Below the pieces are notes generated by a model that saw only the letters and a program-made list of their open reading frames with translations, had not been told where the DNA came from and did not search any database. This document shows positions 40,714-57,827 of a DNA stretch of 64,000 bases, piece by piece. Origin of the DNA: a bacterium (lineage in GTDB: Bacteria > Vulcanimicrobiota > Vulcanimicrobiia > Vulcanimicrobiales > SCRA01); NCBI GenBank assembly GCA_004298675.1, contig SCRI01000025.1:1332-65331 (forward strand), written 5' to 3'. The first letter of the stretch is position 1. Each line of letters opens with the position of its first letter. The translations under genes were made by a program, and so were the position numbers.

Positions 40714-41304
40714 TCACGATACCTCCGCCGCGTTCAACGCTTCGCGCAGCTTGCCCACGCCGCGATGCACGTAGACTTTCACCGTGCCGAGCGGCTGCCG
40801 CAGAATCTCCGCGATCTCCGCGTAGGTCAACCCGTCAATGTGGCGCAGCGTCAGCGGCGAGCGCAGGCGCTCGGGCAGCGCCGCGATCGCTGCGGCCAAC
40901 CCGCGTGCCGCTTCGGCGCGCTCGACGACTGCCTCAGGGCGCTCCCAGGGGCGATCGGCCAACTCCAAGGGCGTGCCGTCATGACGCTCTAGCGGAACGC
41001 GCGGCACGCTCTTCCGGCGCACGCGGTTGCGCACGACGTTGAGCAAAATGCGATAGAGCCACGGCCGTAGCGCCAGCGCGCCTATCCGTTCCGGCCCGTA
41101 ACGCGCCAACGCGCGATAGGCTCGCACGAAGGCGTCCTGGGCGGCCTCCTCGGCGTCTCCGGCGTCGCCCAACAGATGATACGCGCAGCCGAAGAGGCGA
41201 TGTTGGTAGCGGGCTACCAGCGTCTCGAACGCACCGTCTAGATCGGCGGCCAACGCCGCCAATAACGTTCGTTCCCGCTTGCCCGCTTCGACCGAGCCTT
41301 GCAC
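40714..41304 (-). CDS. ECF RNA polymerase sigma factor
   Basis: AFETLVARYQ, DAEEAAQDAFVRAY, PWLYRI and GLTYAEIAEIL..PLGTVK..VHRG. Start uncertain (GTG at 41304 chosen). Confidence 0.92.
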   Translation of the reverse strand: MQGSVEAGKRERTLLAALAADLDGAFETLVARYQHRLFGCAYHLLGDAGDAEEAAQDAFVRAYRALARYGPERIGALALRPWLYRILLNVVRNRVRRKSVPRVPLERHDGTPLELADRPWERPEAVVERAEAARGLAAAIAALPERLRSPLTLRHIDGLTYAEIAEILRQPLGTVKVYVHRGVGKLREALNAAEVS

Positions 41305-41313
41305 GCCAACAGA

Positions 41314-41340
41314 AACACGGAGCGGCTGCAATCCGTTACA
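41314..41340 (-). promoter_or_regulatory. Putative ECF autoregulatory promoter
   Basis: Minus strand TGTAAC-N15-CGTGTT ending 9 nt upstream of GTG 41304; AAC/CGT pattern typical of ECF promoters. Confidence 0.55.
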
Positions 41341-41428
41341 GAGTCCCGCCCCGCAATGGGACCAAAGTCCCATGCGCAAGAGCGCTTCGCCGCAGGGTGG
41401 GCCGCGCGCAAGTCCGCGAAATGCACCT

Positions 41429-42097
41429 GTGATGCATCGCACAGAGGCACTTCCGCCGCCGATCGACCCAGCCTGGCAGGCGTGGGTCACGGAGTGCTGC
41501 GACCCCTACGCTTGGCGCAAGCTCCACGCCGCGGTTGCCGGCATGGCCGCGACCCCACCGACGCTGGCTGACGTGCTCTCATGGCAAGACAGCGGCATCG
41601 TGCCGCCGGCCGATCAGGCCTGGGCGTTGGGCGAGGTCCTCTTCGATGCGGGCATCGCCTGCGCCAGTGGTCTCGCCGCACTATGGTTCGCCGGCCGCCT
41701 GCCGGCGATCGTCTGCATCATGGCATCGCGCGGCGGCCGCTGGCCCCAGATCCTTCACGCGCTGGCCTTGGCAACGGCACCGCGCGCAGTCGTCGATTCA
41801 CAACCCGGCGGCCTCGCGCTCGTTCCCAGCCCCTATCGCGAGATCGTCACGCTCACCGGCACCGAACGCGCCACGTTGCGCGAGCTTTGGCGCACGTGGG
41901 GTGGACGGCCCCGCCTTCCGGCACCGACCTCCGGATACTATCGCGGCCTGCACGAGATCGTCGCCGACGTCGACGCACCTCCGGCGGAGCGCCGGCGCCT
42001 GCTCGATGCGATGCTCTGCGCCGACCTCCCCAGCGGCTGGCCGCACGCGGGTCACGGCGAAAGCGAACCCGCGAATCTGCGCGCTGCCAGCGGCTAA
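41429..42097 (+). CDS. Hypothetical protein
   Basis: ORF fills the gap between the ECF and narI genes; possible degenerate HTH (TLADVLSWQ.SG..P). Confidence 0.45.
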   Translation: MMHRTEALPPPIDPAWQAWVTECCDPYAWRKLHAAVAGMAATPPTLADVLSWQDSGIVPPADQAWALGEVLFDAGIACASGLAALWFAGRLPAIVCIMASRGGRWPQILHALALATAPRAVVDSQPGGLALVPSPYREIVTLTGTERATLRELWRTWGGRPRLPAPTSGYYRGLHEIVADVDAPPAERRRLLDAMLCADLPSGWPHAGHGESEPANLRAASG

Positions 42098-42768
42098 GGG
42101 CGGGCGCCCCGGCGGTACCACATGACGACCTGGTAAGGACGCCAGAGGTAACCCAACGGCAACGACACCAGATGAACCAGGCGCGTGAACGGGAAGAGCA
42201 CTACGAGCAGGAACCCACCGGCCGCGTGGAGCTTCACGAGCATTGGCAGCGGGGTCACGGACTGCAGCGACGGCGAAAGCGTCGCCAGCGACCAGAGCCA
42301 GGCACCCGCGGTTGCCGGATACCAGAGGCCGCCAAAACGCAACGTCACCGCGATCGCGGCACCCAGCACCACCTGCCCCAACAGAACCAGCAGCAGGACC
42401 ACGTCCATCGGCGTCGTCACCGCGCGCACGCGCGGGTTCAGCAGCCGGCGCGTAAACAACGCGACCAGTCCCGCGATCGAGAGCAGACTCAAACCGACAC
42501 CCAGCACCTCGAGCGGGTAGGCGCGCCCGCCTCCGAGCAGATCGATCCACGGTTGCGGTGCCAGCCACGCCAGCGTATGCGCGGCGAGGATGAAGAGGAT
42601 CGCGTAGTGCCACGGCACGGAGCCCCAGAAGAGCCTCGAGCTCTCGAGAAACTGCGAGGAGAGGCTCGAGTACGAGAAGCGGGCGCCGACGAAACGGTAG
42701 ATTCCGACGACGACCGCGAGAGCCACGGCAAGATAAGGGAAGACCGCAAACCAGAAGAGCTCAGACAT
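42094..42768 (-). CDS. narI: Respiratory nitrate reductase gamma subunit (cytochrome b)
   Basis: PYLA, SSLSSQFLE, WHYAI...AH, KLH and FPFTRLVH motifs. Confidence 0.95.
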   Translation of the reverse strand: MSELFWFAVFPYLAVALAVVVGIYRFVGARFSYSSLSSQFLESSRLFWGSVPWHYAILFILAAHTLAWLAPQPWIDLLGGGRAYPLEVLGVGLSLLSIAGLVALFTRRLLNPRVRAVTTPMDVVLLLVLLGQVVLGAAIAVTLRFGGLWYPATAGAWLWSLATLSPSLQSVTPLPMLVKLHAAGGFLLVVLFPFTRLVHLVSLPLGYLWRPYQVVMWYRRGARP

Positions 42769-43297
42769 CGCGTGTCCCTCCCACGGGAACGGCGGCGAAC
42801 AGCGCCTCCAGCGTGGCACCAAGCGCGCGCAGCAGCGCGCCATAGGGGTTGCCACCATCGAGCGCGGCGATCATCGTGCGCAGCGCCGGCGCGATCAGGT
42901 CGATGGCGATCTCCCGGGCCAATTCGTCATCCTCACAGACGGCGGCGAAGCGCACGATCGCGGAGAGATGATCCGGCAGATCCCATTCCGGCAACGTAAA
43001 GGCTTGCGCCGCATAGGTCTGGCGCAGCATCGACATGAGCGCGCCGCGCTTGAAGCTTTCACCGAAGAGATGGTAGCCGACGTACGGACAGCAGACGGGG
43101 CTGAGATCGAACGTCGTCGTGTACCGCTCCTGGACGCGCGCGAGCGGTTCGCCGCCAAGCGCATTCACCGCCCCTTCCACGTCCGGCTCCGGGCCGAACG
43201 TGGAGGACAGCCGCCGCACGCGCTCCTGCAGATCCGCGCCCGGATACTCCAAGAGATCGGCGAAACAGGCGAGACGCGCACGCTGCTCTACACTCAT
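42761..43297 (-). CDS. narJ: Nitrate reductase molybdenum cofactor assembly chaperone
   Basis: LLEYP, QERYTTTFD, YHLFGES.KRG and LPDHL motifs. Confidence 0.93.
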   Translation of the reverse strand: MSVEQRARLACFADLLEYPGADLQERVRRLSSTFGPEPDVEGAVNALGGEPLARVQERYTTTFDLSPVCCPYVGYHLFGESFKRGALMSMLRQTYAAQAFTLPEWDLPDHLSAIVRFAAVCEDDELAREIAIDLIAPALRTMIAALDGGNPYGALLRALGATLEALFAAVPVGGTRDV

Positions 43298-44787
43298 GCT
43301 CCCCGTTTCGGCCTGGCACGGAAGCCAAAGCCGGTCTCGCCTTTCTGCGAGAGCGGATCGTTCCAGAGTTCCTCGATCGCGGCATCCCGTTGATAAGGCG
43401 GGATGACGAATCGCTCGTCGTACGTGGGCAGCGACGTGAGTTTGAAGATTCCGTCGGCCTCATCCGGAGTCAGGCCGACCTCGGCCAGCATCGACCCCGC
43501 CTTCTCCTTGCTGATATCGCCCACACTGACGGAGCGGCGGTGCGCGCGAACGGCGATCAACCGCCGCAGCACGTAACTGACCGGCGCGATGTCGCCCGCC
43601 GAGAAGAGGTTGGCCATGAACTGGAGCGGTACGCGCGCTTTGTCGATCGTGCCGAAGAACTCGGTCTCCTCGATGTCATACGAGCCCTTCTTCATCGAAG
43701 CCATGACCGGCGAGAGCGGCGGAATATAGAACAGCATCGGCAGCGTCCGGAACTCCGGATGCAGCGGGAGAGCGAGATGCCAGCGCTTGACGAACTTGTA
43801 GACGGGGGAACGCTGAGCCGCGTCGATCCACTCGTCGCTGATGCCGTTCTTCTTCGCCGCAGCGATGACGGCGGGATCGAAGGGATCGAGAATCATCTCG
43901 CGCTGCGCCTCGACCAGGCGTTGCTCATCCACCTTGGCGGTCTCCTCGATGCGGTCCGCGTCGTACAGGACTACGCCTAGGTAGCGGATGCGCCCCACAC
44001 ACGAGTGGAAGCACGCCGGCGCCTGACCCGTCTCCAGGCGCGGGAAGCAGAGCACACACTTCTCCGATTTGCCGGTCGACCAGTTGTAGTAGACCTTTTT
44101 ATAGGGGCAGCCGGAGATGCACATGCGCCAGCCGCGGCATTTCTCTTGGCTGACCAGCACGATGCCGTCCTCGCCGCGCTTGTAGATCGCCCCCATGGGG
44201 CAGGCGGCGGAACAGCCGGGATTGGCACAGTGGTTGCAGATGCGCGGGAGATAGAAGAATACCATGCGCTCCAGGTCTGTGAGCTGGCGGCGCTCTTCTT
44301 CATCCAGGCCCTTCAGGTTGGGATCGTTGGCGGCGTAGACCGGCGAGCCACCGAGATCGTCGTCCCAGTTCGGGCCGGCCTCGATGTCCATGTACTCGCC
44401 GCTGACCATCGAGACGGGGCGCGCCGTGGGCTGATCGTCGCCCTCGGGCGCATCGAAGAGATCCTGATACTTGTAGGTCCAGGGCTCGTAGTAGTCGTCG
44501 AGCTGAGGCAGACGCGGATTGTAGAAGATGTTGCCGAGCGCGCCGCCTTTGCGCTGCAGCTTCAGGCGCAGCTCGTTGCCGTCGACCATCCAGCCGCCGC
44601 GGTACTTCTCCTGATCCTCCCAATGCGTGGGGTAGCCCGTTCCGGGCTTCGTCTCCACGTTGTTCCACCACATGTACTCGGCGCCCTTACGATCCGTCCA
44701 TACATTCTTGCAGGCGACGGTGCAGGTGTGGCATCCGATGCACTTGTCCAGATGGAACACCATGGAGATCTGGCGGCGAATGTCCAT
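43294..44787 (-). CDS. narH: Respiratory nitrate reductase beta subunit
   Basis: ATG at 44787; LDKCIGCHTC, RICNHC.NP.C, KCRGWRMC and EKC.LC Fe-S motifs. Confidence 0.97.
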   Translation of the reverse strand: MDIRRQISMVFHLDKCIGCHTCTVACKNVWTDRKGAEYMWWNNVETKPGTGYPTHWEDQEKYRGGWMVDGNELRLKLQRKGGALGNIFYNPRLPQLDDYYEPWTYKYQDLFDAPEGDDQPTARPVSMVSGEYMDIEAGPNWDDDLGGSPVYAANDPNLKGLDEEERRQLTDLERMVFFYLPRICNHCANPGCSAACPMGAIYKRGEDGIVLVSQEKCRGWRMCISGCPYKKVYYNWSTGKSEKCVLCFPRLETGQAPACFHSCVGRIRYLGVVLYDADRIEETAKVDEQRLVEAQREMILDPFDPAVIAAAKKNGISDEWIDAAQRSPVYKFVKRWHLALPLHPEFRTLPMLFYIPPLSPVMASMKKGSYDIEETEFFGTIDKARVPLQFMANLFSAGDIAPVSYVLRRLIAVRAHRRSVSVGDISKEKAGSMLAEVGLTPDEADGIFKLTSLPTYDERFVIPPYQRDAAIEELWNDPLSQKGETGFGFRARPKRGA

Positions 44788-44798
44788 CGTGACTCCCC

Positions 44799-48412
<3,614 letters not shown>

Positions 48413-48416
<4 letters not shown>

Positions 48417-48913
48417 CGAGTGCTCCTACTCACGAGGGCACGCCGCACGCCGGTCAGACGCTTGCGCCAGATGACCGCCATTGCGACGAGCGCGACGATC
48501 GCAAAGAGCAGGCCCAGCAGCGGAAAGCGCGCCGCGTCCCGCTGCGGCGCCGCGCTCGCGACGGCGCCCAGATACGCGATGACGTCGGCTCGCTCCGCCG
48601 CCGTGAGCGGATGCCGCGCGAAGACCGGCTGCATCGACGGAAAAGCGATCGTCGCCAAAACCGGCTCCAGATTCTTCGCGCCGCCGTAACGCGTGAATAC
48701 CGTCGTCAGATCGGGGCCATACGTTCCGCCGGCCGCCCCCGCGCTATGGCATGCGATGCACGGCGTGCCTCCGTTCTGCATGCGAACCGCGCCGCTGAAC
48801 AACCGCGCCCCCAACGCCGCATCTCCGCCCGCAGGCGCCTGCGCCGACACGAGCCCCGGCACGGCGATCGCCAGGAACAGCAGGACCAACATCCATCCCA
48901 CGCGTGCTGCCAT
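48413..48913 (-). CDS. Membrane-anchored monoheme cytochrome c (NarC-like)
   Basis: Signal peptide, CIACH heme motif, GPDLT, distal Met in FPSMQP, C-terminal TM; stop overlaps the narG start. Confidence 0.88.
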
Positions 48914-48919
48914 GGCCAC

Positions 48920-48955
48920 ACCCTAGCCCGCCGCGGTTCCACCCCGGTTCCACCC
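48920..48955 (-). promoter_or_regulatory. nar promoter with 11-bp tandem direct repeat (candidate SARP site) and leaderless -10
   Basis: Minus strand GGGTGGAACCG-GGGTGGAACCG (48955-48934), 8 nt, TAGGGT, 6 nt, ATG 48913. Confidence 0.6.
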
Positions 48956-49008
48956 GCCCCCGTGGCGATCACGCGAGCATCGCGTGCGCAGTCGCAACGT
49001 CAGCGGCG

Positions 49009-49145
49009 GGGCGAGCGACGTCGCCCCTGAGGGGGCTCTGAGGCGCGCGCGGAGCCATGGATGGCGAGAGCGCGCGCGAAGGCAGTAGGAGCGGTGCAGG
49101 ATCGCACCGCGACGCGCGGCCCCTCAGGGGCGATGTCGCTCGCCC
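49009..49145. repeat. 26-bp inverted repeat enclosing a structured spacer
   Basis: GGGCGAGCGACGTCGCCCCTGAGGGG 49009-49034 versus CCCCTCAGGGGCGATGTCGCTCGCCC 49120-49145, one mismatch. Confidence 0.8.
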
Positions 49146-49171
49146 AGACGCGGGCAAGCGCGCACAGGAGC

Positions 49172-50299
49172 CTAGGCGCGCATGGCGTGGTAGAGGGCTT
49201 GGGTTTCCTCGAGCGGGAGGACGCCCAGTTCTTCGTGCAGAGCGCGGGCGCACATCTGGTACTGGCGCAACGCATCGGCGCGGCGGCCGTGGCGCCAGAG
49301 GAGCGCCATGAGATCGCGGTGGACGTCCTCGAGACACGGGTCGACTTCGAGAGTGCGGCGGTAGGCGGCAACGGCAGCCTCGACCTCCCCGCCGTCGTCA
49401 TGGAGGCGTGCGGCCCGGCGCAGCACAGTCATGTACGTCTGACGAAGCTCGCTCCGGCGCTCTCGGCACCAGTCGCTATACGGCTCGTCCTCGAGATAGT
49501 CGCCAACGTAGAGCTGTGCCGCGGCTTCGAAGGCGGCAAGGGCTGGTTCCCGGCAGCCCAGACGCTCCTGGCGCACGCCCTCATTGGAGGCGGCGAGGAA
49601 CTCCTTGGCATCCAGACGGTGGGGCGACGCAACGTCAAAGGCGTAGCCCTCGCCCTCGGTCATGACAAACGCGGCACGCGAGCCGCCGGCAGCCCCGAGG
49701 CCGCGGCGCAAGTAGTGGACCGCCACTTTCAGCATCGTGACGGCGTCCTTAGGTGGCAGTTCCGGCCAGAGCATCTCCACGAGCTCGTCACGGGCGACGA
49801 TCCGGCCATAGTTGGTGAGCAGGATCTTCAGCACCGTCAACGGACGCCGGCGCACGAAGCCGCCGGCAGGCAGGACGGCGCCGCCGCGCGTCGCCGTGAA
49901 GGTGCCCAGACAACGCAGATCGAGGGTCGTGGCGACGGTGCGGCGCTGCTCCAAGAGGATCAAGACGTTGCCCGAGGCCTCATCGGGGCGCATCGCAACC
50001 CCTGCGGAGAGGTGCAGCGGCCGTCCTTGACTGTCGCTGGCGACCAGCCCGCTTGGCCGCGCGGCGCCAGCCGCAGCATCGTTCAGGCTGCGTTTGATCG
50101 GGCAGCGCGCCCCGCTGCAGAGCGGCCGCCCGTCGGCATCCCGGCAGACGACGATCTCGTAGCAGCGGTGCCGTAGCGCCTCGCGAGAACTCCGGCCGAA
50201 GAGCCTACCGGCGGCCGCACTCCAGCCGACGATGCGCCAGCGGCCGTCGATGAGAACGCTCGCGGTACCGGCGCCAAGCGGCGCCCCCGAATCTTCCAT
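49172..50299 (-). CDS. PAS + winged-HTH + BTAD (SARP/DnrI-type) transcriptional activator
   Basis: PAS (LID..WRIVGWS.AA.RLFG) with C-x5-C-x8-C-x4-C; LRCLG.F, RDELVEMLWP, LY.GDYL....YSDW and DP.LED.HR.LM. Confidence 0.88.
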   Translation of the reverse strand: MEDSGAPLGAGTASVLIDGRWRIVGWSAAAGRLFGRSSREALRHRCYEIVVCRDADGRPLCSGARCPIKRSLNDAAAGAARPSGLVASDSQGRPLHLSAGVAMRPDEASGNVLILLEQRRTVATTLDLRCLGTFTATRGGAVLPAGGFVRRRPLTVLKILLTNYGRIVARDELVEMLWPELPPKDAVTMLKVAVHYLRRGLGAAGGSRAAFVMTEGEGYAFDVASPHRLDAKEFLAASNEGVRQERLGCREPALAAFEAAAQLYVGDYLEDEPYSDWCRERRSELRQTYMTVLRRAARLHDDGGEVEAAVAAYRRTLEVDPCLEDVHRDLMALLWRHGRRADALRQYQMCARALHEELGVLPLEETQALYHAMRA

Positions 50300-50391
50300 G
50301 CGCAGACCCTCGCGGGCGGCGGTTACACGACGATCATGGCCGATCGCCCCTGCGGGCGTGGGGAAACTGCCGAGAAGGAACTGAGAACCCG

Positions 50392-51834
50392 CTACTTCAC
50401 GAAGAAGGTGGCGTCACCGGGCATCACGGGGACAAACGTCAAGACGATCACGGCCACGGCGCAGATGGCAACGGCGATCCACGGCAACTGCGACGGCGGG
50501 CGTACCTCGGGATGGCTAAAGCGCTCCACTCTGGCGTACATCGCGCGGATCACCTTGAAGTAGACGTAGAACGAGACGGCCGAACCGATCACGAGCAGTG
50601 CGCCCAGCGGCCAGTAGCCGGTATGGATGGTCGTCGAGAGGATGAAGATCTTGCCGAGGAAACCCGCGGTGATCGGCATCCCAGCCAGCGAGAGCATGAA
50701 GAAGGTCATGGCCGCGGCTAACAGCGGCTGGCGCGCAGCCAAGCCCTCGTACGCCACCAGTTGCGTCCCCTCTTCGCGGTCGCTCGAGAGCAGGGCGGCC
50801 ACCGCGAACGCGCCGAGGTTCATGAACGCATACGCCGCCAAGTAGTACACGGCGCTGCGTATCCCCAACTCCGTCGCGCCGGCAAGCGCGGCGACGATAT
50901 AGCCGGCTTGCGCCACGGCCGAGTAGGCCAACAGCCGCTTGATATCGGTCTGCGCGAGCGCCCCCAAATTTCCCACCAGCATCGACGCGGCCGCAAAGAT
51001 GAAGGTTGGAAGCAACAGCCAGTGGGCGTCCGGCTGGGGAATGGCGGTGTAGATGACGCGTGCCAGCGCCGCCAGGGCCCCCGCCTTGGTGGCCACCGAC
51101 ATGAACGCGGTGACGGGCAACGGTGCCCCTTCGTAGACGTCGGGTGCCCAGATGTGGAACGGCACCAGCGCCAACTTGAAGGCCAGACCGATCAGGAAGA
51201 TGCCCATCCCTAGCGCATAGAGGCCGTGAATCCCGGTAGCCGGGTGGATCAATGCGGAGATGGTCACCGTCCCCGTCGCCCCGAACAGCAGCGCCATACC
51301 GTACAGCAGGAAGCCCGAAGCGGTCGAGGAGAGGACGAGGTACTTGAAGCCGGCCTCTTTCGCAACTTCGCGATCGCGCGCAATGGCGCACAGACAGTAG
51401 AGCGACAACGAGAGGATCTCGAGGCCCAAGAAGAGCGTCATTAGGCTCCCGGCGCCAGCCATGATCATCGCGCCGGTGGAGGACCAGAGCACCAGCGCCA
51501 CATAAGCGGGGCGATCCTCGCTGACGCCGCGGCGATTGAACAGCATCAGCGTTACCAGCGTGGAGAGCAGCACGATCTCCTGGAAGACCACGCTCAGCCC
51601 ATCGAGCACGAAGCCCCCGCCAAACGCGAGATAGTGGACACCGTACGACAGCGAGGCGTAGAGTCCAGCCATGATCGTGGCCATCACACCCAGGAGTATG
51701 GCGGTACCGTTGGCGATGCGGCGGGGCAACAGCAGATCGGCGAGTAGCGCGATCACCGCGGTGCCGCCGACGATCATCGCCGGCAGCAGCGCCTGATAGT
51801 CGAGGGTCTGGACGTATTGAAGGTAACCGCCCAT
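50392..51834 (-). CDS. nuoN: NADH-quinone oxidoreductase subunit N
   Basis: GLEILSL, EAGFKY, FKLALVPFHIWAPDVYEGAP and KRLLAYS motifs. Confidence 0.95.
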   Translation of the reverse strand: MGGYLQYVQTLDYQALLPAMIVGGTAVIALLADLLLPRRIANGTAILLGVMATIMAGLYASLSYGVHYLAFGGGFVLDGLSVVFQEIVLLSTLVTLMLFNRRGVSEDRPAYVALVLWSSTGAMIMAGAGSLMTLFLGLEILSLSLYCLCAIARDREVAKEAGFKYLVLSSTASGFLLYGMALLFGATGTVTISALIHPATGIHGLYALGMGIFLIGLAFKLALVPFHIWAPDVYEGAPLPVTAFMSVATKAGALAALARVIYTAIPQPDAHWLLLPTFIFAAASMLVGNLGALAQTDIKRLLAYSAVAQAGYIVAALAGATELGIRSAVYYLAAYAFMNLGAFAVAALLSSDREEGTQLVAYEGLAARQPLLAAAMTFFMLSLAGMPITAGFLGKIFILSTTIHTGYWPLGALLVIGSAVSFYVYFKVIRAMYARVERFSHPEVRPPSQLPWIAVAICAVAVIVLTFVPVMPGDATFFVK

Positions 51835-53297
51835 CAATGCGAAGCCTCCGAGACGGTAGCCGGAGCGGCGGCTGCAACGCTCGCGGCGACGTTCACCACG
51901 TCATGGGCGGCCGGGGCCGCGAGATTCGGCCAGAGACCGAACAGCAGCAGCGCTGCGGCAAGCGGAGCCACCGCAACGATCTCCCACCACGCCAAATCGG
52001 GGCGGACCGGCAGGTCTTGGACTTCAGGGCCCCAGACCACCTTGAGCAGCACGCGCAGCATGTAGACCGCTGCCAACACGATTGGAATCAGCGCGATCGC
52101 CGCGTACCAGTGCTGCCCCGAGCCCCAGACACCGATCAGGATCAGCAGCTCGCCCGCGAATCCGGCCAGGCCTGGCAGGCCCAGCAGCGCCATCGATCCG
52201 ACCATCATCGCGCCGCCGAGCTTGGGATTGTTGATGCCCAGGCCGCCCAGCCTGCTGATGGCGCGCGTCTCCTCGCGCTGCTCTACGTATCCCACCACCA
52301 AGAACATGACGGCGTTGAACAAGCCATGGGCAACCGCGTAGACCAGCACGCCGACGATCGCCAGCTGGTTGAAGCTTAAGATCCCCAGGAAGAGCAGGCC
52401 CAAGTGGGAGAGCGACGAGTACGCCAGTACACGTTTGGCGTCGTCGTGCCACATCGCCACGAGCGCACCGTAGATCATCGCGATCAGACCCAGCAGCGAG
52501 AGCAGCGGCGCCCAGCGGTGCATCTCCTGCGGAAAGAGTCCGAAGCCGATGACCAGGAATCCGAAGATGCCGCTCTTCGATTGCACCGAAGAGATCACCG
52601 CGGCCAGCGGTGCGGGGCTGGCGGTGTACGTGTCGGGCATCCAGGTGTGGAACGGGAAGAGCGGCGTCTTCACGGCATACGAGAAGGCGAAGCCGACGAA
52701 GATCCACCATGCTGCCCCCGCCGCCAGCGACTGCGCATGGGCGGCACCGATCACGTCGGTGGTTCCGGCGAGGATGCCGTAGGCCGCGGTAGCCAGCAGC
52801 AAGCCCAGACCCGCGGTGCCATTGTAGATCAGGAAACGCCAGGCTGCGGCCGTCCCCTCGCCCCAGTTGACGAGCATGATGAAGACCGGCACGAGCATCG
52901 CGTCCCAGAAGAGCGCGAAGACCAGCAGATCGCGCGCCAGGAACAGGCCCATCATCGTGCCTTCCAGCAGCAGCATCTGCGCCATGAAGTCGCGCTCGCG
53001 CTGCACGTTCGTCACGATCGCAGCCGCCAGCGTGATCAGCGCCAGCATGGCGCAGAACAGCAGCGCGATCTGCGAACTGCCGAAGTGGAAGGCTGCCGTC
53101 CAGGGCGAGTCCGTGAACCACGGATAACTCACCTGATGCCCCACCCTGCCGTACTGCAGCGCCACCAGCAGCAACTCGGCCGCGCTCACCACGATGCCGG
53201 TGCCGCGCGCGATGCCGTCGCCGGCCTTGGGCAGCGCAAACATGGCGAAGCCGAGAACGATGGGCAGCAGCACCACCCAGAGCAACGAATCGGCCAC
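51834..53297 (-). CDS. nuoM: NADH-quinone oxidoreductase subunit M
   Basis: VKTPLFPFHTWMPD, LAYSSLSH, AHGL and GLPGLAGFAGE; GTG at 53297. Confidence 0.95.
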   Translation of the reverse strand: MADSLLWVVLLPIVLGFAMFALPKAGDGIARGTGIVVSAAELLLVALQYGRVGHQVSYPWFTDSPWTAAFHFGSSQIALLFCAMLALITLAAAIVTNVQRERDFMAQMLLLEGTMMGLFLARDLLVFALFWDAMLVPVFIMLVNWGEGTAAAWRFLIYNGTAGLGLLLATAAYGILAGTTDVIGAAHAQSLAAGAAWWIFVGFAFSYAVKTPLFPFHTWMPDTYTASPAPLAAVISSVQSKSGIFGFLVIGFGLFPQEMHRWAPLLSLLGLIAMIYGALVAMWHDDAKRVLAYSSLSHLGLLFLGILSFNQLAIVGVLVYAVAHGLFNAVMFLVVGYVEQREETRAISRLGGLGINNPKLGGAMMVGSMALLGLPGLAGFAGELLILIGVWGSGQHWYAAIALIPIVLAAVYMLRVLLKVVWGPEVQDLPVRPDLAWWEIVAVAPLAAALLLFGLWPNLAAPAAHDVVNVAASVAAAAPATVSEASH

Positions 53298-53299
53298 TT

Positions 53300-55192
53300 C
53301 TACCTCACCACCGCGATATAGACGATGATCGCCGCGGCGCCGCACAGCAGCGTCAAGGCATAGGTGCGAACCAAACCACTCTGCCAGCGCCGGAAGAGCA
53401 GCCCGAGCACTCCGGCGTCGGTAGCCACGTCTCGCACCAGCACGGCGTCGATCAGTTTGGGATCGATGATGCGGGCGCACAGCGCCGCCAAGGCGCGCGC
53501 GGGCGTCACGAAGAGCGCGTCGAGCAGCTCGTTCCAGTAGTAGAGCTTGACCAAAAAGGCCGGCTGTGCCGCCGCCTCGCGCTCCAAGCGCGCAGGCGCT
53601 TGCGCCAGCGCGCCGGCGGTCCCATACTGCAGGTACGCGATTCCGGCACCCACGATCAGCGCGATGAAGAGCGGAATCTGCGTGGAGAGGAACTCACCGC
53701 CCCAAGCCGCGGCCGGCGCGACGTCGGTACCGCCAAAGATCGGCGCGAGGAACTCCGCGAATCCCTCGTGGGGCCAGTTGAGCCAGCCGATGACCACCGA
53801 GCCCGCGCCCAACAACGCTACCGGCAGCCCCATCACCCAGGCGGGAACGTGACCATGTGCATGCGCGCCGTGCTCGTCTCCGCGGAAACTGCCGGCAAAG
53901 GTCACCCACATCATGCGCGACATGTAATAGGCCGTGAGAGCCGCGGCCGCCACGCCTAGCAGCCAGAGCACGGGATGGCCGTGGGCCAAGGTTTGATAGA
54001 CCACGGCATCCTTTGAGACCCAGCCGCTGAAGAGCGGCACGCCGATGATCGCGCACGTGGCCGCCAGCATGCTCCAAAAGGCTACCGGCATGCGCTTGGC
54101 GAGGCCCCCCATCTTGCGCACGTCCTGCTCGCCGGCCAAATTGTGGATGATGACGCCCGATGCCAAGAAGAGGCACGCCTTGAAGAACGCGTGCGTGTAG
54201 AAGTGCAATACGCCGGCGCTGTACGCGCCCACGCCCACGCCCATGATCATGTAGCCGATCTGCGACATGGTGGAGTAGGCCAGGATGCGCTTGATGTCCC
54301 ACTGCACCACGCCCAACACGGCTCCCGCGAGAGCGGTGAGGGCGCCGATCACGCCTACCGTCTCCATCGCGCCGGGCGCATGCTGGTAGATCGGCCAGCA
54401 GCGCGCCACCAAATAGACGCCCGCGGTGACCATCGTCGCGGCATGGATCAAAGCGGAGACGGGAGTCGGTCCCTCCATCGCATCGGGCAACCACGTGTGC
54501 AGCGGCAGCTGCGCCGACTTCGCGCAAGCGCCGGCTAACAGCCCGAGCGCAATCAACGTCATCACCGGACCCGGCCCCTGCGCCGCCTTGGCGAACACGT
54601 CGGCATACGAGAGCGACCCAAACGTGGCGAAGAGCGCGAAGATCGCGAGCATGATGCCGACGTCGCCCACGACGTTCATCACGAACGCCTTGCGCGCCGC
54701 CTCGACCGCGATCGGCCGCTCGATCCAGAAGCCGATCAGCCAGAAGGAGGCGAGGCCCACCAGGCCCCAGCCCACCAGCAGAAAGACGAAGTTATCCGCC
54801 ATGACCAGCGTGAGCATGGCGAAGATGAAGAAATTCAAGTACGCGAAGAAGCGCGCCTCGGCCCGGTCGCCCTCCATGTAACCAATCGCGTAGACGTGGA
54901 TCAAGAAGCCGACGCCCGTGATGATCGTCAGCCAAATGAACGAGAGGCGATCGACGAGCAGGCCTACCGTAATGCCCGGTGCCCAGGTGAACATGGTGAC
55001 GTGGACGCCGGCGGGCTGCGCCGCGACCGCCGGCCACAACGCCAGCGTGCCTACGAAGGCGGCACCGATGACGGCGCAGGCCAAGGGCCCCGCGAAGCGG
55101 CGCAGCAGCGGCCCGCAGGCCCAGATCGCAACCGCCCCCGCAATCGGCAGCAGCCACACGATCAACGGCCAAGAAATAACGCTCGACTCCAC
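53300..55192 (-). CDS. nuoL: NADH-quinone oxidoreductase subunit L
   Basis: KSAQLPLHTWLPDAMEGPTPVSALIHAATMVTAGVY and HAFFKA motifs. Confidence 0.96.
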   Translation of the reverse strand: MESSVISWPLIVWLLPIAGAVAIWACGPLLRRFAGPLACAVIGAAFVGTLALWPAVAAQPAGVHVTMFTWAPGITVGLLVDRLSFIWLTIITGVGFLIHVYAIGYMEGDRAEARFFAYLNFFIFAMLTLVMADNFVFLLVGWGLVGLASFWLIGFWIERPIAVEAARKAFVMNVVGDVGIMLAIFALFATFGSLSYADVFAKAAQGPGPVMTLIALGLLAGACAKSAQLPLHTWLPDAMEGPTPVSALIHAATMVTAGVYLVARCWPIYQHAPGAMETVGVIGALTALAGAVLGVVQWDIKRILAYSTMSQIGYMIMGVGVGAYSAGVLHFYTHAFFKACLFLASGVIIHNLAGEQDVRKMGGLAKRMPVAFWSMLAATCAIIGVPLFSGWVSKDAVVYQTLAHGHPVLWLLGVAAAALTAYYMSRMMWVTFAGSFRGDEHGAHAHGHVPAWVMGLPVALLGAGSVVIGWLNWPHEGFAEFLAPIFGGTDVAPAAAWGGEFLSTQIPLFIALIVGAGIAYLQYGTAGALAQAPARLEREAAAQPAFLVKLYYWNELLDALFVTPARALAALCARIIDPKLIDAVLVRDVATDAGVLGLLFRRWQSGLVRTYALTLLCGAAAIIVYIAVVR

Positions 55193-55199
55193 GATGCGG

Positions 55200-55520
55200 C
55201 TACCCCTTCAACAACATGGCGTCGTCCACGTTGCTCTGGGCGCGCGGACGGAAGAGTATGACGACGATGGCCAACCCGATCGCCGCCTCCGCGGCGGCGA
55301 CGGTGATGACGAGAAACGTGAAAATGTGTCCCGCATTGTTGAGCCAGGCACGGCTGTACGCCATGAACGACAGGTTCGCGGCATTCCACATCAGCTCGAT
55401 CGACATCAGCGTGATCAGAGGATTGCGCCGCAGCACCACCCCCAGCACGCCGATGAAGAACATCAGCGCCGAAAGCGCGGCATACGCGTTGGGGTCGACG
55501 GACATCTGCACCGGAACCAT
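55200..55520 (-). CDS. nuoK: NADH-quinone oxidoreductase subunit K
   Basis: RRN...LMSIELM.NAANL and VAAAEAAIGLAI motifs. Confidence 0.95.
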   Translation of the reverse strand: MVPVQMSVDPNAYAALSALMFFIGVLGVVLRRNPLITLMSIELMWNAANLSFMAYSRAWLNNAGHIFTFLVITVAAAEAAIGLAIVVILFRPRAQSNVDDAMLLKG

Positions 55521-56155
55521 CAGCGCGTCGCCCCCATGGGACGTTCGGGCTTCGCGATCGCCTCGCGCTCGGCGGCTTTGCGCCGCCGCTCCGGGACCGC
55601 CGCCCCCGCCAGTACCACCACGCCAATCACGGCCACCAGCAGTACGAACGCGGTCAACTCGAAGGGCAAGAGATACGTCGTGAAGAGCGCGCGGCCGAAA
55701 TCGGCGACGCTGCCGAAGGCGCCCTCCGCGCCCGGTGTGATGGTCACCGCGGGAATCTCACCGCGTGACACCGGCAGAACCGTCGCGGCCCCGAGCATGC
55801 CGCCGCCCGAGGGAATCTGCGCGCGCAAGAGCCCATAACCCAACGCCACCAGGGCCAACGCCCCGACGATCAGCGCCGGCAGCGTGAGCTTGGTCAAGCG
55901 GTTGGGGCCGGGAGCCTCGATGCTCGTGCCCGCGCCGAGCAAAGCAATGACGAAGATGAACAGGATCAGAATGGCGCCGGAGTAGACGATGATCTGGATC
56001 ATCGCCAGAAACTCCCCTGAGAGCGTCAGGTAGAGCACGGCTAGCGCCGCGAAGTTGGCGAGCAGCGCGACGACGCTGTGCACCGGATTGCGCGCCGAGA
56101 TCACGCCGATGGCCGAGGCAATAAGCGCCACGGCCAGGATCGCGAAGACAGCCAT
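55520..56155 (-). CDS. nuoJ: NADH-quinone oxidoreductase subunit J
   Basis: NPVHS, EFLAMIQIIVYSGAI and LPFEL..LLVA; ATG at 56155. Confidence 0.94.
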   Translation of the reverse strand: MAVFAILAVALIASAIGVISARNPVHSVVALLANFAALAVLYLTLSGEFLAMIQIIVYSGAILILFIFVIALLGAGTSIEAPGPNRLTKLTLPALIVGALALVALGYGLLRAQIPSGGGMLGAATVLPVSRGEIPAVTITPGAEGAFGSVADFGRALFTTYLLPFELTAFVLLVAVIGVVVLAGAAVPERRRKAAEREAIAKPERPMGATR

Positions 56156-56156
56156 A

Positions 56157-56795
56157 TTACTGGCCCCCCTTGAGCTGCTCCGGTTCTCCGACCAGCTCGC
56201 CACCGGCGGGCGTCGGCATATAGGTCTTTCCCTTGGAAGTGAGGATGTCGATGCCGCGCCAGGTCGCCAGATAGCCCTTCTCGGGTTCCATGGTGGACTT
56301 CACGCGCGCGACTTCGCCCAGATCGGCCGGCAGGCCGCCGGGGCGCTCGAGCGGTGACTCTCCCACACCGAACTCCGCCGGCACGAGCAGCTTACTCTTG
56401 TCGTAGATCAAGGAGCTACGCGTGTAGTTCGCCATCTCGAAGCGCGGCGTCAGCGTGATGGCATCGGTCGGACACGCCTCCTCGCACATCCCGCAGAAGA
56501 TACAGCGCAGCTCGTCGATCTCGTAGCGGTAGGCGTAGCGTTCGCCGGGCGAATGGCGATCTTCCGGCGTGTTCTCCGCTCCGACCACGGTGATGGCATT
56601 GGCGGGGCAGGCGATCTGGCAGAGCTCGCAGCCGATACAGCGCTCCATGCCGTCTTCGTAGCGGCGCAGCTCATGCAGGCCGTGGAAGCGCGAGGCATGA
56701 GCACGCTTGACGAACGGATAGTCGATGGTCGCCTTGCGGCGGAACATGTATCCGAACGTGGTGGCGAGCCCCTTGAAAATTGCGATGATGTTCAT
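56157..56795 (-). CDS. nuoI: NADH-quinone oxidoreductase subunit I
   Basis: CIGCELCQIACP and CIFCGMCEEACP motifs. Confidence 0.96.
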   Translation of the reverse strand: MNIIAIFKGLATTFGYMFRRKATIDYPFVKRAHASRFHGLHELRRYEDGMERCIGCELCQIACPANAITVVGAENTPEDRHSPGERYAYRYEIDELRCIFCGMCEEACPTDAITLTPRFEMANYTRSSLIYDKSKLLVPAEFGVGESPLERPGGLPADLGEVARVKSTMEPEKGYLATWRGIDILTSKGKTYMPTPAGGELVGEPEQLKGGQ

Positions 56796-56834
56796 GATGC
56801 CAGTCCTCGGGGAGATCCGGGAGTCCGCAACGTG

Positions 56835-57827
56835 CTAATACCAGAACGCCACGACGATGGCCGTGACCAGAAGATTGAGCGTGGCGAGCGGCAGCAGTAC
56901 CTTCCACCCGAAGGCCATGAGCCGGTCGTAACGCAGGCGCGGCAGCGTGCCACGCAGCCAGATATAGAAGAATAGAAACGCGAACACCTTGAGCACGAAG
57001 TAGAGCAGGCCCAACAGCGGGTGCCCTACCGCGCCCGGCCCGTTCCAGCCGCCCAAGAAGAGCAGCGTGGCCAGGCACGAGACCGTGATCATGTTGATGT
57101 ACTCGGCGATGAAGAACAAGCCGAAACGCAAGCCCGAGTACTCGGTGTGGAAGCCCGCCACGAGTTCGGACTCGGCTTCCACTAAATCAAACGGCACGCG
57201 ATTGGTCTCGGCCACCGCCGTGATGATGTAGATGATGAAGCCGAGTAGCTGCGGGACGATGAACCAGACGCGGCTCTGGGCCTCGACGATCCCCGTCAGC
57301 GAGGTGGTGCTCGCCTGCAGGATGACGCCGATGACCGACATCGTCATCGCCAGCTCGTAGCTGACCATCTGCGCGGTGGCACGCACGCTGCCCAGCAACG
57401 GATACTTCGAACCGGATGCCCAACCCGCCAGCGAAATGCCGTAGACGCCGATCGAGGTAATGGCAAAGACGTACAGGATGCCGGCGTTGACGTTGGCGAT
57501 CGACCACGGACCGTGCTCGCCTTGCGAGAACGGGATCACGGCGTAGGCCAACAGGGCCGTGAAGACGGCGATGAACGGAGCCAAGCGGTAGATCAGCGGG
57601 TCGGCGCTGTTGGGCGTGAGGTCTTCTTTGAAGATCATCTTCAACGCATCGGCGGCCGGCTGGAGCAGCCCCCAGGGGCCAACCTTGTTCGGCCCGACGC
57701 GCAACTGCATGTAGGCGAGCACCTTGCGCTCAGCCAGCATCGTGTACGCGAAGAGCGTGACCACGATGATCAAGAGCACGAGGCTCTTGATCGCGACGAG
57801 CAGCCACAACGGCAAGGCTTCGATCAT
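56835..57827 (-). CDS. nuoH: NADH-quinone oxidoreductase subunit H
   Basis: ERK...Q.RVGPN, AETNRVPFDL.EAESELVAGF.TEYSG and PRLRYD; ATG at 57827. Confidence 0.96.
   Translation of the reverse strand: MIEALPLWLLVAIKSLVLLIIVVTLFAYTMLAERKVLAYMQLRVGPNKVGPWGLLQPAADALKMIFKEDLTPNSADPLIYRLAPFIAVFTALLAYAVIPFSQGEHGPWSIANVNAGILYVFAITSIGVYGISLAGWASGSKYPLLGSVRATAQMVSYELAMTMSVIGVILQASTTSLTGIVEAQSRVWFIVPQLLGFIIYIITAVAETNRVPFDLVEAESELVAGFHTEYSGLRFGLFFIAEYINMITVSCLATLLFLGGWNGPGAVGHPLLGLLYFVLKVFAFLFFYIWLRGTLPRLRYDRLMAFGWKVLLPLATLNLLVTAIVVAFWY

Follow-up and report, generated by a model that had tools for sequence, protein, structure and literature searches.

A predicted Cys-PAS activator of the DnrS family encoded upstream of a narC-narGHJI operon

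The gene lying directly upstream of narC-narGHJI in a 64-kb stretch of bacterial DNA (the window) is predicted to encode a one-component activator of this operon, a regulator of the DnrS family whose activity would be gated by an N-terminal PAS domain holding an Fe-S cluster. We put the probability of this reading at about 0.6. New here are the conservation of the regulator's cysteines together with their alignment to those of OrpR, a corresponding Cys motif in DnrS, and a conserved box at the promoter of the nar operon.

The regulator gene and its surroundings

The minus strand at 48413-50299, the span given in the initial annotation, carries two genes, the regulator gene and narC. The regulator gene (49172..50299, minus strand) was delimited by its open reading frame, translation and Pfam matches and encodes a protein of 375 aa with gene-like codon usage (GC3 0.82). 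Directly downstream, narC (48413..48919, minus strand) opens the nar operon and encodes a membrane-anchored mono-haem cytochrome c (Pfam Cytochrom_C, E 1e-6), with a CIACH motif and a hydrophobic stretch at the C-terminal end of the translation; its true start is probably the ATG at 48913. It is followed on the same strand (42094..48416) by narG (44799-48416; Pfam Molybdopterin and Molydop_binding), narH (about 43294-44800, start approximate; Fer4_11 and Nitr_red_bet_C), narJ (42761-43297; Nitrate_red_del) and narI (42094-42858, start approximate; Nitrate_red_gam).

On its other side, the regulator gene is preceded at a distance of 92 nt by the nuo operon. A scan of 48800-50500 detected no terminator-like site between nuoN and the regulator gene, and the two such sites found in this region both lie inside the regulator gene. 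No Rfam match was obtained for 48700-50500 at E≤1. A MITE-like element of ~150 nt (49003..49151) with 32-nt terminal inverted repeats (49003-49034 and 49120-49151, 91% complementary) is located between the regulator stop codon and the promoter box described below; seven more copies with 96-98% identity are found on other contigs of the same genome.

The window was reported to lack any Fnr/Crp/Dnr, NarXL or NreBC gene, and this holds for its 58 gene-like ORFs, among which Pfam detected no Crp/Fnr protein and no NarXL or NreBC pair was seen. A single histidine kinase is encoded at 34720-36807, with no adjacent receiver domain according to Pfam. The window also contains an H-NOX (HNOB) gene at 23583-24206.

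An arrangement of PAS, winged helix and BTAD had been proposed for the protein encoded upstream of nar, and the layout of the locus, Pfam, and profile and structure matches of the PAS region all agree with it. Both SARP domains score above the Pfam cut-offs: an OmpR-type winged helix-turn-helix at aa 154-221 (49637..49840, minus strand; PF00486 Trans_reg_C, E 2e-9) and a BTAD at aa 229-374 (49178..49615, minus strand; PF03704, E 6e-25), which covers the full length of the profile. Four residues, H195, L197, R198 and L201, are invariant in an alignment of 37 family sequences, the first three belonging to the recognition helix. The NCBIfam AfsR model matches aa 119-370 with an E-value of 1e-16, far below the full-length cut-off of this model.

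The N-terminal domain (aa 1 to about 118; 49946..50299, minus strand) contains C46, C52, C61 and C66 as well as the acidic residues E48 and D54, and is the proposed Fe-S site. Within the first 125 aa, Pfam PAS (PF00989) reaches only a sub-threshold score (E 0.0025, 18.3 bits vs a cut-off of 22.6), and a word-index search with this region returned only the query. We nevertheless assign it to the PAS domains, since relatives retrieved with the N-terminal region score above the PAS threshold, a 56-sequence profile of the region matches solved PAS domains (DosP, E 5e-11; 6rhg_A, E 1.5e-8), and the Atlas predicted structure of the regulator aligns to PAS domains with TM scores of 0.72-0.80. Around aa 119-126 the PAS domain gives way directly to the winged helix. 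In the 375 aa, Pfam gave no match to GAF, to a cNMP-binding or Crp-type HTH domain, or to Sigma54_activat or a kinase domain.

A direct-repeat box at the narC promoter

Upstream of narC, on the minus strand, we identified two perfect 11-nt direct repeats, GGGTGGAACCG (48934..48955), with GGAACC cores at 48951-48946 and 48940-48935. Tandem Repeats Finder describes this SARP box with a period of 11, 2.0 copies and a match of 100%. A candidate –10 hexamer, TAGGGT (48920..48925, minus strand), follows 8 nt past the 3′ heptamer repeat and ends 6 nt before the narC ATG. For SARP activators, direct repeats with a period of 11 or 22 bp and a distance of 8 bp between the 3′ repeat and the –10 region have been described as the rule in the available part of a report on these proteins (PMC10936776). 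The geometry of the narC promoter, with GGAACCG, a period of 11 nt, a distance of 8 nt and TAGGGT, fits this rule, and TAGGGT may well be the working –10 element. A generic σ70 scan of 48800-50500 detected no promoter.

To judge the box we turned to related loci. In 23 of the 35 loci compared, GGAACC-N5-GGAACC with up to two mismatches lies between –20 and +200 nt relative to where the regulator match ends, against a background of 43 matches in 555 kb, or 0.017 per 220 nt. Its arrangement is likewise conserved: the box is followed after 8-9 nt by TAnnnT, just ahead of the gene that opens the nar operon, and in an alignment of 15 loci (A3) both GGAAC cores as well as the T, A and final T of TAnnnT are invariant. 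This conservation extends to MAGs labelled Eremiobacterota, Chloroflexota and Actinomycetota. The perfect motif occurs only once on both strands of the 3.03-Mb genome, at narC, and since ~0.7 perfect copies would be expected by chance at this size and composition, the weight of the box lies in its position and conservation alone. No second box was found upstream of the regulator gene at up to two mismatches; some relatives (L021, L024) do carry one at this place. A GGAACC tandem considered for the Thermus dnrS-narC intergenic region was rejected, as this region contains a single GGAACC on the opposite strand.

Based on these features, the SARP module, probably dimerised side by side, would bind the pair of GGAACC repeats at 48951-48935, which are spaced by 11 bp. 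The repeats would then stand in for a –35 element 8 bp upstream of the TAGGGT, and the mRNA would begin at the narC ATG or immediately beside it and be leaderless or nearly so. The regulator shares its winged helix, BTAD and 11-bp direct repeats with SARPs such as AfsR, ActII-ORF4 and DnrI, to which EmbR is a structural relative. These proteins act on biosynthetic clusters and carry C-terminal NOD/TPR regions, whereas the regulator precedes a respiratory operon and is distinguished by its N-terminal PAS domain and the GGAACC repeat. The hosts of its family are found both inside and outside the Actinomycetota.

Kinship with Thermus DnrS

BLASTP aligns aa 123-333 of the regulator to DnrS of Thermus thermophilus with 31% identity (E 4e-21). 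The available excerpts of the DnrS papers describe this GAF + BTAD protein as an O2-responsive activator and master regulator of narCGHJIKT, an operon carried by the NCE element, that adopts an O2-sensitive conformation and is needed for nar transcription (PMC5748679; PMC7694296). According to the same excerpts, DnrS has been called an oxygen sensor since 2007 and sensing is attributed to its GAF domain, while the centre responsible is described as unknown, the protein being intractable in vitro. The architecture had not been recognised as described, but the SARP module is homologous to this published activator and the regulator is thus not a new class; by sequence it is a DnrS-family SARP without a GAF domain.

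Both proteins possess a homologous winged helix and BTAD and are encoded beside narC-narGHJI. They differ in that DnrS comprises 601 aa and contains the GAF domain as well as another Cys-rich region in its middle part, whereas the regulator reaches 375 aa and lacks GAF. The Thermus dnrS gene adjoins the Crp/Fnr gene dnrT and is divergent from narC-narGHJI, in contrast to the regulator gene, which is co-directional with nar and has no adjacent CRP gene. In Thermus, DnrS is reported to require the CRP-type DnrT in addition, a general activator (excerpts of PMC5748679 and PMC7694296). In the genome of the regulator, which is 98.5% complete, all seven above-threshold HTH_Crp_2 matches lie on other contigs, and the five ORFs matching DnrT (tblastn E 1e-12 to 6e-5) lack an FNR-like N-terminal Cys cluster; the best of them, on contig C74, is Cys-free and shows 28% identity to DnrT (E 1e-12). 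It is plausible that the regulator takes the place of Fnr, and a Cys-free DnrT-like co-activator encoded elsewhere in the genome may assist it. With FNR the regulator would share its proposed role, to turn on nitrate respiration without O2 through an O2-labile Fe-S cluster, but the two proteins are unrelated in fold, in DNA site and in how they contact RNA polymerase.

The closest homologues share 55-63% identity with the regulator across the SARP module and are of the GAF-SARP or CysPAS-GAF-SARP type, and the GAF domain of these sister proteins shows 34% identity to that of DnrS (E 5e-16). In the tree, the regulator groups with three CysPAS-GAF-SARP proteins (P0002-P0004; clade support 100/99), and its loss of GAF is unique inside this clade. 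The ancestral form would accordingly have been CysPAS-GAF-SARP, from which the regulator lost GAF, and the Cys-PAS would be left as its only sensor.

The proposed synteny of homologues with nar was recovered: nar follows the homologue on the same strand in 26 of 36 loci and lies upstream of it in one more, and narC homologues precede narG in related loci. At E≤1e-100, narG is present in 5 of 61 related genomes, and in four of these (G000, G021, G047 and G049) the regulator adjoins it; no close regulator homologue was found in the narG-less genomes of this set. A genome of the same genus (G001) carries a different narG (52% identity); a search for the regulator gave no homologue there at the threshold used, and the 20 kb examined contain no box at up to one mismatch. 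Most nar-linked family members are GAF-only forms of roughly 440 aa without a Cys-PAS, indicating that the PAS domain is dispensable for nar control across the family as a whole.

Such a history raises the possibility that the regulator is a decayed or signal-blind remnant after GAF loss, constitutive or inactive, and that nar is set by its expression level, for example through read-through from nuo, or by a different factor, for instance a CRP protein resembling DnrT. The uniqueness of the GAF loss in its clade, the MITE inserted between the regulator gene and the nar promoter, the interval between nuoN and the regulator gene without a terminator-like site, and the Cys-free DnrT-like gene on contig C74, given that DnrT is described as a general activator in Thermus, would all be compatible with it. 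Yet the reading frame is intact with a GC3 of 0.82, every family-invariant residue of PAS and SARP is retained, the SARP box is free of mismatches and has the right spacing, and further GAF-less PAS-SARP proteins exist, one of which (L054) has nar downstream. We consider a remnant very improbable.

The cysteine site of the PAS domain

The four cysteines claimed for the PAS domain are all present in RCYEIVVCRDADGRPLCSGARCP (aa 45-67), with the spacing C-x5-C-x8-C-x4-C and with their codons on the minus strand at 50164-50162 (C46), 50146-50144 (C52), 50119-50117 (C61) and 50104-50102 (C66). Their conservation was confirmed for three of them: C46, C61 and C66 are invariant in the 56-sequence alignment, occur in 110 of 148 proteins matched by phmmer, and are also invariant in a 12-sequence alignment (A4) that includes DnrS and OrpR-like proteins. 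The fourth, C52, is clade-specific and found in 22 of the 110 proteins carrying the other three. The regulator contains the sole Cys-PAS of its genome. A search with the PAS domain of a PAS-PP2C member (P0142) gave 1170 matches; among the 120 listed, 117 are PAS-SpoIIE proteins, and none of these 120, all PAS-SpoIIE or PAS-only, is a σ54 protein. A tblastn search of plasmids with a 110-aa Cys-PAS protein gave no match. As defined by these alignments, the Cys-PAS module is a large sensor family, of which apparently one member has been studied so far, as far as our literature search shows.

A multi-Cys site in the GAF domain of the family was also considered and rejected, with one Cys conserved there (67 of 71 sequences). 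DnrS itself carries a Cys motif ahead of GAF, C33...C48-x2-C51-P, which aligns to C46/C61/C66 (hhalign probability 92%, E 5e-7; alignment A4) and is kept in the orthologue of T. parvatiensis. The available excerpts of the two DnrS papers do not mention this motif (PMC5748679; PMC7694296).

OrpR of Desulfovibrio vulgaris Hildenborough is the experimentally characterised relative: in the accessible part of the report, its PAS domain holds a [4Fe-4S]2+ cluster that is redox-sensitive and shows UV-vis and EPR signatures, for which three Cys are required (PMC8359166). Among the retrieved proteins, L086, L088 and L091 (454 aa; PAS + Sigma54_activat + HTH_8) carry Cys at positions 52, 61 and 65 and Glu54, corresponding to the residue numbers reported as essential in OrpR (Cys52/61/65 and an acidic residue 54; same report); they were matched to OrpR by this numbering, architecture and phylum, not by name. 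Sigma54_activat was found in L085, L086 and L095. C52, E54, C61 and C65 of the OrpR-like proteins align with C46, E48, C61 and C66 of the regulator. Equating the residues simply by number, OrpR C52/D-E54/C61 with regulator C52/D54/C61, was rejected, as the alignment gives C46 and E48. The OrpR-type PAS and that of the regulator share about 25-27% identity and differ in loop length: between the first two conserved Cys, the OrpR-like proteins have 7 residues fewer and therefore lack the positions of C52 and D54. OrpR further differs from the regulator in its output, a σ54 AAA+ domain and a Fis-type HTH instead of a SARP module, and in its targets, the orp operons instead of nar. Our Fe-S assignment draws on homology to this PAS type at 25-27% identity and is put forward as probable.

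NreB, which the initial annotation had taken as its model, shares with the regulator the idea of a Cys-ligated Fe-S cluster in a PAS domain, but differs in motif spacing and architecture. As summarised in the available part of PMC13478379, NreB of Staphylococcus carnosus is a sensor kinase with a [4Fe-4S] PAS that responds to O2 and controls nitrate/nitrite respiration, and the motifs are CX2CX11CX2C in Staphylococcus and CX2CX11C in the three-Cys [2Fe-2S] protein of Bacillus licheniformis. This histidine kinase acts via NreC, whereas the regulator is a one-component protein. NreB is absent from the PDB and family matches of the regulator PAS.

The cysteines could instead hold a structural Zn as Zn(Cys)3-4, or act without metal as a thiol/disulfide switch, with the PAS domain sensing oxidants by a disulfide, or sensing another signal such as nitrate, nitrite or a metabolite while Zn stabilises the fold. 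Three or four clustered Cys fit Zn as well as Fe-S, a variable fourth position is tolerable for a simple switch, some PAS domains bind metal in a form other than Fe-S (a Zn-binding PAS is described for WalK), and our literature search retrieved no spectroscopic data on SARP-, LuxR- or PP2C-linked Cys-PAS members. The missing conservation of the fourth ligand (C52 in 22 of 110 proteins; His or Leu in DnrS at the position of E48) likewise counts against an Fe-S site. Sensory Fe-S sites, however, usually show three invariant Cys and a variable fourth ligand, as seen here. Moreover, the aligned Cys triad of OrpR is required for its [4Fe-4S] cluster (available part of PMC8359166), and the module is tied to an operon of anaerobic respiration in a family whose founder DnrS is described as O2-labile. 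We regard Zn or a thiol switch as unlikely.

Lower still is the chance that NO, nitrosative stress or sulfide, rather than O2 or redox potential, is the main signal for the site, be it Fe-S or another, and that the regulator tunes nar to intermediates of denitrification. DnrS, the founder of the family, is tied to O2 and OrpR to redox potential in their descriptions, and the nar promoter is the sole target predicted in the genome, with none at nir or nor genes. Sensory Fe-S clusters do often react with NO, as described for NsrR (PMC5748679, in part), and the H-NOX gene at 23583-24206 suggests NO signalling in this organism. The three-Cys [2Fe-2S] PAS of B. licheniformis NreB is reported to sense sulfide (PMC13478379, in part), but its CX2CX11C motif is unrelated to that of the regulator.

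We thus favor an O2- or redox-labile Fe-S cluster, most likely [4Fe-4S], through which the PAS domain would gate the activity of the regulator. C46, C61 and C66 would ligate it together with a fourth residue, C52 in the clade of the regulator and perhaps E48 or D54 elsewhere. An intact cluster, under anoxia or low redox potential, would leave the SARP module free to activate, and its oxidation or loss would switch activation off. Of the one-component Fe-S-PAS-SARP sensor proposed initially, the Cys-PAS and SARP parts tied to nar hold up and the Fe-S idea gains support from the alignment to OrpR, while we infer the cofactor and the signal, and likewise which way the switch turns, the dimeric state and where transcription begins.

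More tentatively, and at somewhat less than even odds, O2/redox sensing throughout the DnrS lineage, also in Thermus DnrS, could be the task of the Cys-PAS rather than of GAF. This PAS would then be an example of an OrpR-type Fe-S sensor module that is widespread and that evolution has joined to at least six outputs (SARP, LuxR-type HTH, PP2C phosphatase, GGDEF, EAL and σ54 AAA+), with the regulator as its minimal natural form, a two-domain switch that drives a leaderless nar operon via a GGAACC direct-repeat box, and would underlie FNR-independent anaerobic nitrate respiration in many Terrabacteria.

The regulation of nitrate respiration outside Proteobacteria and Firmicutes is poorly understood. 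On the question of how DnrS senses oxygen, the locus offers a small natural version of the DnrS family, which with 375 aa and no GAF may be easier to purify. It also offers a precise predicted operator, GGAACC-N5-GGAACC at 8 bp from a TAnnnT –10 element, and in C46/C61/C66 a specific candidate sensing site that recurs in DnrS and has OrpR as an experimentally characterised relative. Our analysis points to the part of the DnrS family that may do the sensing, and indicates that the conserved functions of SARP activators reach far past antibiotic pathways and include respiration.

The regulator gene and its surroundings

The initial annotation gave the region 48413-50299 for a candidate O2-sensing activator of a nitrate reductase operon. 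Its sequence observation was sound, but the region contains two minus-strand genes. The first (49172-50299) encodes the regulator of 375 amino acids. The second, narC (48413-48919), encodes a 168-aa cytochrome c with a single CIACH motif and overlaps the start of narG (44799-48416, minus strand), which is followed by narH, narJ and narI. Regulator and narC are separated by a spacer of 252 nt, and no Rfam family matches the regulator-narC region. Within the spacer (49003-49151) lies an element of ∼150 nt with 32-nt terminal inverted repeats (91% complementary). Seven other copies with 96-98% identity are found in the genome, on contigs C53, C76 (two copies), C55, C50, C6 and C21, several of them at contig ends. 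The element resembles a recently active MITE whose insertion between regulator and operator left both undamaged.

Upstream of the regulator, a complete nuoC-D-E-F-G-H-I-J-K-L-M-N operon (50392-63996, minus strand) ends after a gap of 92 nt. Both lie on the same strand, no terminator-like site is found between nuoN and the regulator gene, and transcription read-through from nuo into the regulator gene is possible. At the other end of the nar operon, an open frame of 272 codons (41279-42097, plus strand) is convergent on narI and fills 600 nt, without any other assignment, between narI and an ECF σ factor gene (40714-41490). The window also contains a gene for an H-NOX (HNOB, haem-NO-binding) protein (23583-24206, plus strand), possibly an NO-sensing element, followed by a nitronate monooxygenase-like gene (24246-25211).

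A three-cysteine PAS domain

Pfam assigns a Trans_reg_C winged helix (aa 154-221) and a BTAD domain (aa 229-374) to the regulator, which shows both defining features of SARPs. The translation contains RCYEIVVCRDADGRPLCSGARCP, with cysteines at positions 46, 52, 61 and 66, in agreement with the domains and residues described previously. For aa 1-125, the Pfam PAS models gave a sub-threshold match only (E 0.0025). A phmmer search of 1.84 billion representative proteins with this segment returned 170 matches at E≤1e-3. In scanned relatives the PAS domain scores above threshold, and it is fused to LuxR/GerE HTH, SpoIIE (PP2C), GGDEF, EAL, GAF-SARP or SARP outputs. In an alignment of 56 sequences, only the columns of C46, C61 and C66 are invariant. 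All three residues are present in 110 of the 148 phmmer-matched proteins of the local set, and these 110 proteins frequently also share W26 (109), G57 (106), an acidic residue at position 48 (93) and D54 (86), while C52 is found in 22. Compared with solved PAS domains, the Cys-PAS profile matched DosP (E 5e-11) and 6rhg_A (E 1.5e-8); none of the solved structures matched by the profile carries the three-cysteine motif. Residues 1-122 of the ESM Atlas model align to PAS domains with TM scores of 0.72-0.80, and the proteins matched in the Atlas have PAS-LuxR, PAS-SpoIIE, PAS-BTAD, PAS-GGDEF and PAS-sigma54 architectures. Based on the PAS matches of the relatives, the invariant cysteines, the profile matches and the Atlas alignment, we therefore conclude that the N-terminal domain is a real PAS domain of a distinct three-cysteine subfamily. 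Of the four cysteines noted previously, C46, C61 and C66 are conserved, and C52 is a clade-specific addition.

A PAS domain with a comparable motif has been characterized in OrpR, a σ54 activator of Desulfovibrio vulgaris, where it binds a redox-sensitive [4Fe-4S]2+ cluster (PMC8359166). According to the same report, C52, C61 and C65 of OrpR are conserved and required for sensing, and an Asp/Glu at position 54 was proposed as a possible fourth ligand. For the comparison we used a set of OrpR-like proteins from a genome search in place of the named OrpR sequence. The regulator PAS matched at E≤1e-3 in 72 of 301 genomes from the phylum of a Syntrophobacteraceae MAG. Among 30 fetched loci, six ORFs contain the string GAFTGA, a σ54 signature, and three (in loci L085, L086 and L095) show PAS, Sigma54_activat and HTH_8 by Pfam. 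The 454-aa ORFs of L086, L088 and L091 carry cysteines at exactly 52, 61 and 65 and a Glu at 54. By tblastn and MAFFT, these residues align with C46, C61, C66 and E48 of the regulator; the OrpR-like proteins lack seven residues matching positions 51-57, and the identity between the PAS domains is ∼25-27%. D18, G35, C46, C61 and C66 are invariant in an alignment of 12 sequences that includes two N-termini of DnrS, the O2-responsive nar activator of Thermus thermophilus.

Judged by these sequence alignments and the invariant columns, the C46/C61/C66 triad is homologous to that of a PAS domain with an experimentally shown Fe-S cluster. The regulator thus has the sensor motif in common with OrpR, but not the output. 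NreB, previously proposed as the model, shows a different cysteine spacing, CX2CX11CX2C or, in the [2Fe-2S] form of B. licheniformis, CX2CX11C (PMC13478379), and is an analogue rather than a relative. The position of the fourth ligand is not conserved, and it is possible that the cysteine site of the regulator binds Zn or acts as a thiol switch instead of holding a cluster as its OrpR homologue does.

Linkage to nar and a conserved GGAACC box

One scan of species-representative genomes yielded 36 regulator loci. The synteny with nar that the initial annotation proposed to look for among homologues was found in 26 of these 36 loci, a count that is not independent because the genomes are related to each other: narC and/or narG lie at most 3 kb downstream of the regulator, in the same orientation. 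In two of the 26 (L034 and L051), the contig stops with narC alone visible. L035 has nar upstream of the regulator, and of the other nine loci, five offer less than 3 kb of sequence downstream. In several Eremiobacterota loci, moeA is located between the regulator and narC.

Just upstream of narC, we identified a perfect tandem of the 11-mer GGGTGGAACCG (48955-48934, minus strand). The closest relative, L020, whose narG is 84% identical, carries GGAACCG-GAAC-GGAACCG at the same 20-nt distance to the narC ATG. Of 35 external loci, 23 carry a GGAACC-N5-GGAACC motif (≤2 mismatches) in the interval from –20 to +200 nt relative to the end of the regulator match; in 21 of the 23, the best box has no mismatch. 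The rest of the scanned loci contains the motif 43 times in 555 kb, i.e. 0.017 per 220 nt. The box of the window is located 221 nt past the regulator stop codon because the ∼150-nt element is inserted in between.

In an alignment of 15 loci, the two GGAAC cores are invariant, as are the three specified bases of a downstream TAnnnT motif. This motif precedes the start codon of the first operon gene by 6-9 nt in the window (48911-48925) and in 14 aligned relatives. In SARP promoters, the repeats are 11 or 22 bp apart, the 3′ repeat lies 8 bp from the –10 region, and the SARP dimer replaces –35 recognition (PMC10936776); the box-TAnnnT geometry of the nar loci is the same. The short and conserved distance between the –10 region and the ATG points to a leaderless narC mRNA, and to leaderless or near-leaderless nar transcripts across several phyla.

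The 3.03-Mb genome contains a single perfect box, the one at narC. Since ∼0.7 copies are expected by chance from composition, the weight of this argument lies in position and conservation. From its sequence context, the regulator looks like a pathway-specific activator of a single operon. In some relatives, a second GGAACC-N5-GGAACC-like box is found just upstream of the regulator gene (L021:9289 and L024:9354), suggesting autoregulation as reported for DnrS at Pdnr; the window regulator has no upstream box at ≤2 mismatches.

Among 61 related genomes, five contain narG at E≤1e-100, and the regulator adjoins it in four (G000, G021, G047 and G049); owing to the relatedness of the genomes, these counts are not independent either. 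In the fifth, the same-genus genome G001, two ORFs of ∼400-500 aa precede a different narG (52% identity; C40:15278-18823, locus L058). A DnrS-like regulator homologue is missing from this genome at E≤1e-20, and the 20 kb scanned for the GGAACC box contain none at ≤1 mismatch. The genus has therefore gained nitrate reductase at least twice, under different control.

The DnrS family and the control of nar

Of 8000 candidates scored in a search with the whole protein, 89 matched at E≤1e-5. The best matches are GAF-wHTH-BTAD proteins of ∼440 aa with 55-63% identity over the C-terminal two thirds and source labels of Eremiobacterota/Vulcanimicrobiaceae and Chloroflexota. In P0002-P0004, three proteins with lengths of 550-566 aa, the same four-Cys PAS precedes a GAF domain and the SARP module. 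A tblastn search of plasmids matched Thermus thermophilus megaplasmid genes annotated as ‘GAF domain-containing protein’. In one record, a gene for a 601-aa protein followed by a Crp/Fnr gene is divergent from genes for a c-type cytochrome, narG-narH-narJ-narI and a transporter, which is the published layout of dnrS-dnrT and narCGHJIKT (PMC7694296). The regulator and DnrS share 31% identity over aa 123-333 (E 4e-21), and the GAF domain of the Eremiobacterota proteins matches that of DnrS with E 5e-16. BLASTP aligned aa 46-82 of the regulator with aa 33-67 of DnrS, containing C33, C48 and C51-Pro. Profile comparison placed the Cys-PAS alignment on DnrS 9-70 (92% probability, E 5e-7), and the T. 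parvatiensis orthologue (65% identity to DnrS) keeps all three cysteines. By homology and context, the regulator is a member of the DnrS family, but it lacks the GAF domain and the adjacent CRP-type partner DnrT.

Thermus DnrS (P0238, L056:7837-9642) has a second Cys-rich stretch between GAF and winged helix (∼aa 315-350, five Cys including C-x4-C-P). The Deinococcus protein P0239 (L057:8410-10065) has one at this place as well (C-x6-C-P and two more Cys); it is devoid of an N-terminal Cys-PAS and adjoins genes for an assimilatory-type molybdopterin oxidoreductase and NarK. On a T. thermophilus SNM7-6 plasmid (L066, 190580-191041), an unannotated remnant of ∼100 codons directly upstream of the Crp/Fnr (DnrT) gene combines a DnrS-like N-terminus, with a degraded Cys motif, and a C-terminal end resembling that of DnrS, and apparently represents a collapsed dnrS. 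The top match to the regulator PAS by identity (51%) in the phylum of the Syntrophobacteraceae MAG is a 579-aa protein (L069:1447-3183, genome G081) with a Cys-PAS much like the DnrS N-terminus (C-Y-E-L-V-Q-G-R-D-A-F-G-R-P-L-C-G-P-R-C-P) and a GAF domain (aa 322-456); Pfam found no SARP domain in it.

In a maximum-likelihood tree of the SARP module (51 sequences, midpoint-rooted for drawing only), the regulator, P0004 and P0002/P0003 are early branches of a clade supported by 100/99 that otherwise consists of 19 GAF-only proteins. CysPAS-GAF-GAF forms recur in its sister clade, and more Cys-PAS forms, along with DnrS, branch off deeper in the tree. The simplest reading of this tree is that the ancestor would have been a CysPAS-GAF-SARP protein, from which the ∼440-aa group lost the PAS and the regulator the GAF domain. 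Further GAF-less PAS-SARP proteins are L054, L052, P0074 and P0167, and in L054 nar lies downstream of the gene.

Based on the architecture of the regulator, its homology to DnrS and to OrpR-type PAS domains, its linkage to nar and the conserved box, we propose the following mechanism. Under anoxia or at low redox potential, the PAS domain would hold an Fe-S cluster on C46, C61 and C66, with C52 added in the regulator's clade. In this state, a dimer of the SARP module would occupy the two GGAACC repeats and recruit RNA polymerase to a promoter without a –35 element; conversion or destruction of the cluster by O2 or oxidants would turn the regulator off. In OrpR, the PAS exerts negative control, and variants with Cys-to-Ser changes or without the PAS are constitutive (PMC8359166). 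By analogy, the simplest prediction is that the PAS of the regulator is also negative and that the corresponding variants would be constitutive.

None of the seven Crp/Fnr-type HTH matches of the genome (98.5% complete) lies in the window, consistent with the earlier observation that the window has no Fnr/Crp gene. Since the five ORFs of the genome matching DnrT by tblastn show no FNR-like Cys cluster and no other Cys-PAS was found in this genome, the regulator fits the role of the O2/redox input for nar. Alongside it, a helper of the DnrT type or a distinct nitrate sensor may act. Most nar-linked family members lack the Cys-PAS, and therefore the GAF domain, which has a single conserved Cys in 67 of 71 sequences, must also be able to give control.

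Our searches of the main texts of non-subscription papers turned up neither a PAS-SARP nar regulator nor a Cys motif of DnrS nor the GGAACC box. The sensor of DnrS is stated there to be unknown and ‘likely’ its GAF domain (PMC7694296, PMC5748679, PMC6282519); in the accessible text, the word ‘cysteine’ is absent from PMC6282519 and never used of DnrS in PMC5748679. Our finding makes the question of the DnrS sensor testable.
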